Below, piece after piece: positions 10,056-11,348 of a DNA stretch of 64,000 bases. Source of the DNA: an uncultured Anaerolineales bacterium (GTDB lineage: Bacteria; Chloroflexota; Anaerolineae; B4-G1; SLSP01); the NCBI GenBank assembly GCA_964586915.1, contig CAZPJP010000001.1, positions 11,342 to 75,341 of the forward strand, in the 5' to 3' direction. Position 1 is the stretch's first letter. Every line of letters begins with the position of its first letter. The translations under genes were made by a program, and so were the position numbers. The notes below the pieces were generated by a model. That model ran no database searches. It saw only the letters and a list, made by a program, of their open reading frames with translations, and was not told the DNA's origin.

Positions 10056-11348
10056 ATGGCGAAGAACTGGCTGAGGCGTCTGCTATCCTTTGAGCGCGCT
10101 GAACATGCCGCGCCCGTCGAGCCCGGGCTCTATCACGTAATGCAGGAGACCGGCGATACGTTCGCCCGATTCCACCTGCGGGTGGAGAACGACGGCAGCG
10201 GCATGCTCATCGCTAACGCGATGGCCGCCGCCCGCTTGACCCCGTCGGGGGTTGTCATCGCGAAAGGGCTCCTTGAAGACCACACCCGTGACGAGATCAT
10301 CGAAAGGCTCAAATCGCACTTCTCCGGCGCCCGGGAGGAGATAATGCGCGCCGACATCGCCAAGGTGAACGATCTCATCGAGCAGCTCAAGGCGCCAGGC
10401 GATACGTATCCGGTCTTCAACCTGGAGGACGCCGCACTCTCGCCCTATGATGCGGAACTCATCGCCCCGCTGCAGGCGACGGTCCCATTGGCGGAGCCGA
10501 AGGTGATCGTGCCCATCCTCGACCGTCTCTGGGAAGTCGGCATCCCGCACGTCACGATTCTCGTGCCGTATGGTTGTGACCCGGCTGATGTGCTAAGGGC
10601 CGTGGAGCGGGCGGAGGATCTGGGTATGATCGCCGGGGTTAGGGGACGGGCCACGACCCTGAATGCGGAGGGTTTCCTCTCCGACCTTCGCCTGACCGGG
10701 ATTGACCACGTCACCTTTCTCTATGCCGCAGCCGAGCGGGACATCCACAACGGTCTTTGCGGCGAGGGTGATTTTGCAGCGGCTGAAAGCGTGCTGGACT
10801 GGCTGGAGACCTATCAGGTCGCCGCGGTGGCTGAGATTCCCCTGGTGCAGGCCACGCTCGATCGCATCGACGAGACCGTAGATGTGCTCATTGCTAGCGG
10901 CGCTGACAACCTCGCATTTGTCGCGTATCCAACGACAGATCCCGAGCTCGCGCGGCAGGAGGGCATCTTTAGCCGTGAGGGCATGGTGCAGGTGGCGGCC
11001 ACGGTGGAGGAGACCGCCGATATGGCCAACGCCCGTTTCATCTGGGATCCACCGGTGGAACGCGATCCAGATCGGTCGCTGACGGACCAGATCCTGCGGG
11101 GCCCCCGATGTTCCGGGGACGTAGCCGTCCGCGTCGAGCCCACCGGCGAGGTTATCCCGCCGCGAGGCCCCTACCGGAGCGCCGGCAATCTTCTGCGGGA
11201 CTCGTGGGACTCGATTTGGAATGATCCCGTCTTTCGCCACTATCGGGAGCGTGTGGCGGCGCCGACCCACTGTGAGGTCTGCCCCGGTCTCGCGATCTGC
11301 GCGGCTGCTTGCCCACGTGATCCGGAAGGATGGGCGCGGGGTGGCTGA
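10056..11348 (+). CDS. Degenerate radical-SAM/SPASM paralog (no CX3CX2C cluster) with RRE-like N-terminus
   Basis: ORF 9966..11348 trimmed to ATG 10056 (GAGGAGGG RBS). It aligns by eye with the 7141 enzyme (PGLY..HLRVxxDGSG.L N-terminus; VGIPHV; C-terminal DSWDSIWND..F; HCEVCPGLAICAAAC). There is no Cys at all in its first 173 aa: APLQATVPLAEPKV sits where the SAM cluster should be, and VPYGCDP replaces GGEP. Confidence 0.75.
   Translation: MAKNWLRRLLSFERAEHAAPVEPGLYHVMQETGDTFARFHLRVENDGSGMLIANAMAAARLTPSGVVIAKGLLEDHTRDEIIERLKSHFSGAREEIMRADIAKVNDLIEQLKAPGDTYPVFNLEDAALSPYDAELIAPLQATVPLAEPKVIVPILDRLWEVGIPHVTILVPYGCDPADVLRAVERAEDLGMIAGVRGRATTLNAEGFLSDLRLTGIDHVTFLYAAAERDIHNGLCGEGDFAAAESVLDWLETYQVAAVAEIPLVQATLDRIDETVDVLIASGADNLAFVAYPTTDPELARQEGIFSREGMVQVAATVEETADMANARFIWDPPVERDPDRSLTDQILRGPRCSGDVAVRVEPTGEVIPPRGPYRSAGNLLRDSWDSIWNDPVFRHYRERVAAPTHCEVCPGLAICAAACPRDPEGWARGG

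Follow-up and report, generated by a model that had tools for sequence, protein, structure and literature searches.

Radical S-adenosylmethionine (SAM)/SPASM maturases are, to our knowledge, usually described as self-sufficient, with a small RRE protein as their only helper, if they have one. SuiB (5v1q/5v1t), SkfB (6efn), CteB (5why) and PqqE (6c8v) are catalysts with a SAM cluster and two auxiliary clusters, whereas the stand-alone chaperones of the RRE/PqqD type (PqqD with PqqE, MftB with MftC, the lasso B1 proteins) are non-catalytic, bind the precursor and hand it to the catalyst. Homologs of radical SAM/SPASM enzymes without SAM-cluster function exist in the databases by curated name, as the haloarchaeal "pseudo-SAM/SPASM protein" TIGR04347 of NCBIfam. 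Apart from electron transfer in PapB, nothing relevant was found in the literature on pseudo-SAM proteins, on the function or partners of TIGR04347, or on inactive radical SAM partners. Here we analyse a protein of this inactive kind, hereafter B, encoded in a stretch of 64,000 nucleotides (the window) from an uncultured Anaerolineales bacterium, together with its active paralog A. With moderate confidence we consider B to be a pseudoenzyme that serves as an accessory, non-catalytic substrate-binding or scaffold subunit alongside A.

Loss of the SAM-cluster site

The genes and motifs compared are the following.

7141..8646, plus strand: active radical SAM/SPASM maturase A (501 aa), with an N-terminal RRE-like domain, CNNACPHC (aa 155-162), GGEPT and 8 Cys in the SPASM region
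10056..11348, plus strand: dead radical SAM/SPASM paralog B (430 aa), "B-type", assigned by full-length alignment to the active paralog
10464..10505, plus strand: APLQATVPLAEPKV (aa 137-150 of B), what remains where the CX3CX2C loop was lost, 17-18 residues shorter than in every active paralog
10563..10583, plus strand: VPYGCDP (aa 170-176 of B), degenerate GGE (SAM-binding) motif, aligned with ILTGGEPT of A
11271..11312, plus strand: CEVCPGLAICAAAC (aa 406-419 of B), the CX2CX5CX3C motif (Cys 406, 409, 415 and 419), a SPASM remnant, invariant in the alignment

BLASTP joined A and B in a single collinear alignment (residues 25-462 of A, 21-430 of B) with 25% identity and an E value of 1e-33, so that the similarity is not a product of chance. 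The ATG of B at 10056 is preceded by GAGGAGG and is also the start in homologs; the surrounding open reading frame opens at 9966. Landmarks of the alignment are PGLY (aa 23-26), HLRV (40-43), DGSG (46-49), VGIPHV (161-166) and DSWDSIWN (382-389). In a multiple alignment of active and dead sequences, the deletion of 17-18 residues removed the CX3CX2C loop of B as a whole, and GGEPT was changed to YGCDP. The same loop deletion was present in all B-type sequences, from Chloroflexota, Planctomycetota and one deltaproteobacterial metagenome-assembled genome (MAG), and the position equivalent to GGE was variable across the family.

The Cys residues of B are at positions 174, 235, 352, 406, 409, 415 and 419, the first 173 residues being free of Cys. 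Among 94 aligned members of the B family, only the columns of Cys 406, 409, 415 and 419 were universal. All other Cys columns stood at 53% or lower (Cys352 at 53%, followed by 50% and 34%), and no alternative conserved Cys triad that might bind a SAM cluster was found in the barrel of these 94 members. Judged from these alignments, canonical binding of a SAM cluster by B is impossible, since both the loop and the GGE motif are missing and every other Cys column stays at or below 53%. B lacks the SAM-cluster motif and the GGE motif of the radical SAM superfamily's functional members, as well as the set of 7-8 Cys for two SPASM auxiliary clusters.

These results agree with most of what an earlier note on this DNA had proposed: that B is collinear with the 7141..8646 enzyme through the motifs listed above, that no Cys occurs before residue 174, that APLQATVPLAEPKV and VPYGCDP stand in place of CX3CX2C and GGEPT, and that reductive SAM cleavage by the canonical route is impossible, which the loop deletion and the loss of GGE bear out. 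The pairwise and profile alignments that it had suggested as a check showed a genuine similarity, and no non-canonical three-Cys site was found elsewhere in the 94 members. Its description of the SPASM end as kept was too generous. Of the 8 Cys in the SPASM region of A, 5 are kept in B; the CX2CX5CX3C motif is conserved, but two upstream Cys (Aux I) and the downstream Cys (Aux II) of A are missing, and the chain ends 11 residues past the motif. P410, P420 and W426 are invariant along with the four C-terminal Cys. The capacity for an auxiliary Fe-S cluster, also proposed, is compatible with four universal Cys, but at most one cluster of auxiliary type would be possible, because only this motif is conserved and the Aux I and Aux II Cys around it are gone.

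Other members of the radical SAM superfamily, such as ThiC and Dph2, have non-canonical cluster motifs. B might likewise still be a radical SAM enzyme, with a cluster held by its C-terminal Cys folding back or by Cys donated by a partner, and its four invariant Cys would be available for this. However, the whole beta1-alpha1 loop is deleted, GGE, the holder of the SAM amino group, is lost, the barrel contains no conserved Cys, and the C-terminal motif sits where the homologs have Aux II. We regard this explanation as highly improbable.

Family size and selection

A word-based search recovered 593 relatives of B. The best 120 of the 593, all from Anaerolineae MAGs, were 56-100% identical to B; CX3CX2C was present in none of these 120 and CX2CX5CX3C-P near the C-terminus in all of them. 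About 100 clusters (at 50% identity) carry the loop deletion of B. A profile built from 50 B-type sequences and searched against 1.84 billion representative proteins matched 152 representatives at E <= 1e-30, with active enzymes ranking only lower, and 47 of 78 full-length matches were without CX3CX2C and had kept the four-Cys motif. Of the 25 genomes of the window's GTDB family, 22 had an intact ortholog of B, in each case some 2 kb away from that of A; 20 of these were among the 22 genomes of the window's own genus and 2 among the 3 from other genera.

The ratio of nonsynonymous to synonymous substitution rates (dN/dS) was estimated for both paralogs against the same two degrees of divergence, as follows.

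B (dead): 0.085 against an 86%-identical ortholog; 0.065 against a 73%-identical ortholog
A (active): 0.121 against an 86%-identical ortholog; 0.057 against a 73%-identical ortholog

B is thus a functional gene under purifying selection, with ratios as low as those of A. The loss of its catalytic motifs is what a decaying pseudogene without function would also show, but the frame is intact in 22 of 25 genomes of the family and in other phyla, dN/dS is 0.065-0.085, and the predicted fold (below) is of high confidence. The intact orthologs, the 120 homologs and the low dN/dS rule out decay, to which we assign next to no probability.

Predicted fold and domains

An AlphaFold2 model of B, based on the family alignment, had a predicted local distance difference test score (pLDDT) of 87.3 and a predicted template modelling score (pTM) of 0.86. 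Residues 24-112 form four strands and three helices, residues 140-330 six beta/alpha units, and a small domain closes the chain. Foldseek searches of the PDB with this model returned SuiB first, followed by SkfB, DesII, PqqE and CteB. E values were 5e-12 to 1e-7 and template modelling scores about 0.4-0.55 for SuiB, SkfB, PqqE and CteB, and the alignments covered 410-490 columns for SuiB, SkfB, DesII and CteB, and 294 for PqqE. These relatives were reached by fold search only, the B-family profile having matched nothing among PDB sequences at E <= 0.01. Together, BLASTP, the model and Foldseek place B in the radical SAM superfamily by homology and by a partial (beta/alpha)6 TIM barrel. According to the model, B retains the three-part fold, with an RRE-like domain, a partial barrel and a SPASM-like end.

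10113..10391, plus strand: N-terminal RRE-like (PqqD-type) domain of B (about aa 20-112), assigned from the model, weak profile matches and a block common to the active enzymes

The common block, HLRVE.DG.G.L..NA, was found in the multiple alignment in active enzymes, in B and in a second type of dead paralog (P-type, see below). Profile matches of B itself were weak. PqqD (PF05402) scored 16.9 bits in Pfam, against a cut-off of 23.4, with E 2e-5 for the best family member, and the lasso PqqD model of NCBIfam gave E 0.0024. SPASM (PF13186) scored 23.3 bits, above its cut-off of 21.5, and TIGR04085 19.6 bits, below its cut-off of 27; Radical_SAM (PF04055) did not match B at E <= 0.01. When 50 family members were searched singly against Pfam, 46 matched SPASM, 28 PqqD (at E <= 0.01) and 19 Radical_SAM. 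The retention of an RRE-like end, as the earlier note had it, gains strength from the fold and from the 28 of 50 members that match PqqD, whereas B taken alone remains below the threshold.

Nine polar residues of the barrel (E187, D188, R196, D217, H231, Q312, E318, R351 and R359) are at least 90% conserved in the 94 members. Such conservation, under strong selection and on a long branch (1.6-2.0) that would fit a change of function, is what one would expect of a neofunctionalised enzyme, whose barrel would use these residues for a different, non-radical activity on the tail described below or on another substrate. However, B matches no catalytic family beyond radical SAM/SPASM, the residues could equally line a peptide-binding groove, and the P-type does not share them. 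We think a new enzymatic activity decidedly unlikely.

Linkage with the active paralog and a second dead type

In B-type cassettes from beyond the window's family, the distance from the stop of the active gene to the start of the dead one is -7 to 84 nt. The window's family differs in having a gene resembling the MetH activation domain, and sometimes also one for a membrane protein, inserted between A and B. Pairwise distances between active proteins were correlated with those between their dead partners (r = 0.94, Mantel p = 0.001 for B; r = 0.48, p = 0.003 for the P-type), the dead proteins evolving slightly faster than the active ones. B is co-inherited with the active paralog, in conserved synteny.

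The cassette to which both genes belong encodes membrane proteins with a characteristic C-terminal tail, and a back-translated pattern of this tail was searched against a species-representative genome set. At least 120 contigs matched. Among the matches listed, to which all the distribution data refer, most were from Anaerolineae. The other carriers were Planctomycetota, Acidobacteriota/Aminicenantes, Fermentibacterota, Zixibacteria, Coatesbacteria, Hydrogenedentes, Bacillota, delta/Pseudomonadota MAGs and Asgard archaea, and two were cultured organisms, Ornatilinea apprima P3M-1 and Leptolinea sp. HRD-7. Of 64 informative tail loci of Chloroflexota, 63 had a dead paralog, which in most was the P-type. 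Two gene orders were distinguished.

Subtype 1: Zn-ribbon, active, B-type dead, tail protein(s), methyltransferase; tail CACACAGCACACACAGGGR; carried by the window's family, two Planctomycetota, one other Anaerolineales MAG and one deltaproteobacterial MAG
Subtype 2: Zn-ribbon, tail protein, active, P-type dead, methyltransferase; tail ending in CACACACAGCACACAGGGR; the majority of loci

Like B, the P-type occupies a place beside the active gene of the same cassette (within 60 nt of it in 28 of 43 loci), has an RRE-like domain and has lost the three SAM-cluster Cys. The manner of the loss differs. In the P-type, the length of the loop is kept and the three Cys are substituted; GGEPT is kept, every SPASM Cys is lost, 1-3 non-conserved Cys remain and the C-terminus ends before CX2CX5CX3C. 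Its identity to active enzymes is 34-36%, compared with 25% for B. It still scores as Radical_SAM, and one P-type relative passes the PqqD threshold with 27 bits. The P-type might bind SAM without a cluster. Examples are found at 2118-3278 (minus strand) of locus L070 (Ornatilinea apprima P3M-1), 9181-10422 (minus) of L019 and 11253-12752 (minus) of L018, with about 60 others. In three hybrid loci (L082, L111 and L124), one strand carries a subtype-1-like active gene with a gene for a tail-less membrane protein relative behind it, and the other strand a P-type dead paralog with a tailed membrane protein.

A natural fusion was also found, in which the RRE-like domain and barrel of a B-type protein (residues 1-342) are joined in frame to the N-terminus of a tail-bearing membrane protein (948 aa). 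It occurs in two assemblies (proteins P0178 and P0271, 947 of 948 residues identical) and has no four-Cys end, which suggests that this motif may be dispensable in the fusion lineage. The fusion could be a real Rosetta-stone or a recent deletion; as a Rosetta-stone, it faintly hints at an action of B on, or together with, the tail protein.

These data bear on whether B is an electron-relay subunit, whose CX2CX5CX3C motif would bind an Aux-II-like [4Fe-4S] cluster and pass electrons to or from the clusters of the active enzyme during a thioether-type chemistry on the tail. Family-wide invariance of the four Cys and of P410, P420 and W426 speaks for a relay, as does the role of the motif in SPASM enzymes, where we take it from PqqE (6c8v) that the first three Cys ligate Aux II and the fourth Aux I. 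A precedent for electron transfer between molecules is thioether-forming PapB, in which re-reduction of the SAM cluster needs intermolecular transfer, probably via the second auxiliary cluster (PMC10470005). However, the more common P-type has only its 1-3 non-conserved Cys and ends before the motif, and the fusion does without it, which argues against a relay as what the dead types have in common. Moreover, a relay would need neither the conserved RRE-like domain nor the barrel, and the downstream Cys, the usual fourth ligand of Aux II, is absent. An electron relay therefore appears unlikely to us, though it is a live alternative.

Proposed role of B

A non-catalytic partner is the best reading of B, because its catalytic site is lost and its gene is nevertheless selected and co-inherited with the active paralog. 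The scaffold or chaperone role suggested in the earlier note is compatible with this (selection, co-inheritance and synteny all point that way), but the cluster binding attached to it is unlikely to be the core of the role, since the P-type has no Fe-S Cys and the fusion no four-Cys end. In the scheme that we propose, the invariant Cys-Ala tail CACACAGCACACACAGGGR carried by both adjoining membrane proteins would be the target of the cassette's active radical SAM enzyme and methyltransferase. B would most probably use its RRE-like domain and the groove of its barrel to grip the substrate protein, either by the tail itself or by the conserved residues that precede it, and would then keep the tail in place for A or offer it to A, with which it would probably form a complex. 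One Aux-II-like cluster, or else a structural metal, may be bound by the four Cys of B. What happens chemically to the tail is inferred in this scheme, as are the binding of the substrate, the complex and the content of the cluster site.

Several points weigh against a partner of this type. Modification of the tail and contact between the proteins, on which it depends, are themselves inferred. A has its own RRE-like domain, which leaves the need for a second one unexplained. The invariant four Cys argue for a metal or cluster role that would be superfluous in a pure peptide chaperone, and the conserved polar residues R196, D217, H231, Q312 and E318 of the barrel could constitute a new catalytic site. 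Finally, among the matches listed, no dead paralog was found in Asgard archaea (4 of 4 cassettes) or in the cassettes of Zixibacteria, Coatesbacteria and Hydrogenedentes. There, the active gene is followed directly by that of the methyltransferase (Asgard loci L073, L075, L099 and L119, Zixibacteria L090, Coatesbacteria L095), and such cassettes are apparently the minimal form of the system. Because archaeal and some bacterial cassettes are without one, the dead paralog is accessory and not essential for the core chemistry.

An accessory, non-universal protein that kept its peptide-binding parts and lost catalysis could also be a negative regulator or holdase. In that case, B would sit on the active enzyme or on the tail before its modification, which it would delay or limit until insertion into the membrane. 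Tight operon coupling, with the dead gene just downstream of the active one in most loci, and co-inheritance are more typical of complex subunits, however, and we know of no precedent for such a regulator in radical SAM systems. This role seems very unlikely.

If B is an accessory partner of the active enzyme, a broader proposal can be made for both dead types, which we put forward only tentatively, as the less probable part of our interpretation: they may be dedicated specificity or assembly subunits of a machine for the maturation of protein tails that arose, or at any rate decayed, by two complementary routes. As read from the alignments, the routes are indeed complementary, for B lost the loop and GGE and kept an Aux-II-like four-Cys site, and the P-type kept GGE and the loop and lost all Fe-S Cys. 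Should both types form obligate heterocomplexes with the active enzymes, these would be the first described enzyme-pseudoenzyme pair for protein maturation in the radical SAM superfamily, and a natural experiment on which parts of the radical SAM/SPASM fold serve substrate handling and which catalysis.

The cassette in the window

Besides A and B, the cassette of the window consists of the following genes.

6562..6918, plus strand: small membrane protein whose C-terminus is a Zn-ribbon, at the head of the cassette here and in nearly all loci
8756..9292, plus strand: polytopic membrane protein (178 aa), present as an insert in part of the window's family
9319..10032, plus strand: MetH activation-domain-like protein ending CQLCPREAC (Pfam Met_synt_B12, E 1.5e-5, 25 bits)
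11330..13123, plus strand: membrane protein 1, with the tail CACACAGCACACACAGGGR encoded at 13064-13120 and identical in all orthologs
13192..15060, plus strand: membrane protein 2, a paralog of protein 1, with the same tail CACACAGCACACACAGGGR encoded at 15001-15057
15066..15806, plus strand: class I SAM methyltransferase that closes the cassette (Pfam Methyltransf_11, E 4e-18)

All genes from 6562 to 15806 run co-directionally, and the order in the window's family is Zn-ribbon, A, (membrane protein), MetH-activation-like, B, two tail proteins, methyltransferase. The window holds the components by which the cassette is recognised, namely an active radical SAM/SPASM enzyme, the Zn-ribbon protein, the methyltransferase and tails ending (CA)nG(CA)nGGGR. 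A scored E 5e-27 for Radical_SAM and E 2e-11 for SPASM in Pfam, and its nearest solved relatives by sequence were PqqE 6c8v (E 7e-22) and SkfB. It has an additional CPTC (aa 122-125, 7504-7515) in the linker between RRE-like domain and barrel. This pair is CxTC in subtype-1 active enzymes, is reduced to one Cys in those of subtype 2 and is absent in both dead types. No further radical SAM/SPASM paralogs were found in the source genome.

The 178-aa membrane protein had no family match in Pfam or NCBIfam; it is present in locus L014 and absent from L013, L016 and L017. The MetH activation-domain-like protein could be a SAM-binding accessory. Its gene lies between A and B only in the window's family, A and B being adjacent in other B-type cassettes. 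The two tail-bearing membrane proteins are of about 600 aa each. The first possible start of protein 1 overlaps the stop of B by 19 nt (11330-11348), and similar overlaps of 4-25 nt occur in the orthologous loci L013, L014, L015 and L017; a later start, MRPMTSRR, with a signal-peptide-like sequence, is possible. The methyltransferase frame opens at 15006, its likely start being Met21 at 15066, and its position at the end of the cassette is conserved. A full-length serpin (Pfam E 4e-119) is encoded just 5' of the cassette, at 5039-6343 on the plus strand, and adjoins it in the related genome of L016 too.

Origin of the two dead types

The B-type and the P-type were each monophyletic (100/100). 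In a quick tree of 78 rows, P grouped with the active enzymes of subtype 2 and with unpaired ones, and B lay on its long branch. When three long rows were removed, B and P became sisters with a support of 68. Constraining B with the active set A1, or P with A2, was not rejected in either case, and both constrained trees scored above the quick free tree. In a careful tree of 42 rows, B with the subtype-1 active enzymes (A1) was split from a group of P with the subtype-2 and unpaired active enzymes (A2 and A0) (94/86), and a constraint joining B and P was again not rejected (p-AU 0.61, approximately unbiased test) and scored slightly better than the careful tree itself. Neither a single loss in a dead ancestor common to both types nor two separate losses is favoured by these trees. 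No derived indel common to B and P was found in the multiple alignment. Long-branch effects on the placement of B are likely.

Comparison with known systems

Two catalogued families were considered and rejected for B. TIGR04347, with a cut-off of 525 bits, did not match it even at E <= 10, and a Planctomycetota B-type sequence scored 21.6 bits. The GeoRSP SPASM-domain protein TIGR04304 likewise gave no match at E <= 10, only the GeoRSP radical SAM model TIGR04303 matching, at 11 bits. NCBIfam contains no family-level model for A or B. The kind of protein is catalogued, but only as the curated name of a model, and the B family itself is uncatalogued. What is new here is the existence of two complementary dead types, their distribution, the data on selection and fold, and the fusion. 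Several phyla keep a full-length dead copy under strong selection beside the active enzyme, as do almost all Chloroflexota cassettes of this system, which is widespread and uncharacterised and whose apparent target is the tail of whole membrane proteins. In attempts to reconstitute this system B offers a handle, since activity, solubility or specificity may depend on such a helper, and the two dead types offer a way to separate the substrate-handling from the catalytic functions of the radical SAM/SPASM fold.

An enzyme acting on a whole protein is also found in the quinohemoprotein system, where the radical SAM/SPASM protein QhpD reportedly forms Cys-derived cross-links in QhpC; substrate and motif differ from those of B's system, and we know of no dead paralog that is a partner of QhpD. 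SuiB, SkfB, CteB and PqqE have the same three-part architecture and fold as B, but B is without the SAM-cluster loop and GGE and has only 4 SPASM Cys left out of 7-8. With the stand-alone RRE chaperones it shares a PqqD-like domain, known from weak profile matches. However, these chaperones are single domains of about 90 aa, whereas in B the RRE-like domain sits on a complete dead barrel with a SPASM remnant, and, unlike in their systems, the active enzyme of B's system carries an RRE-like domain of its own.

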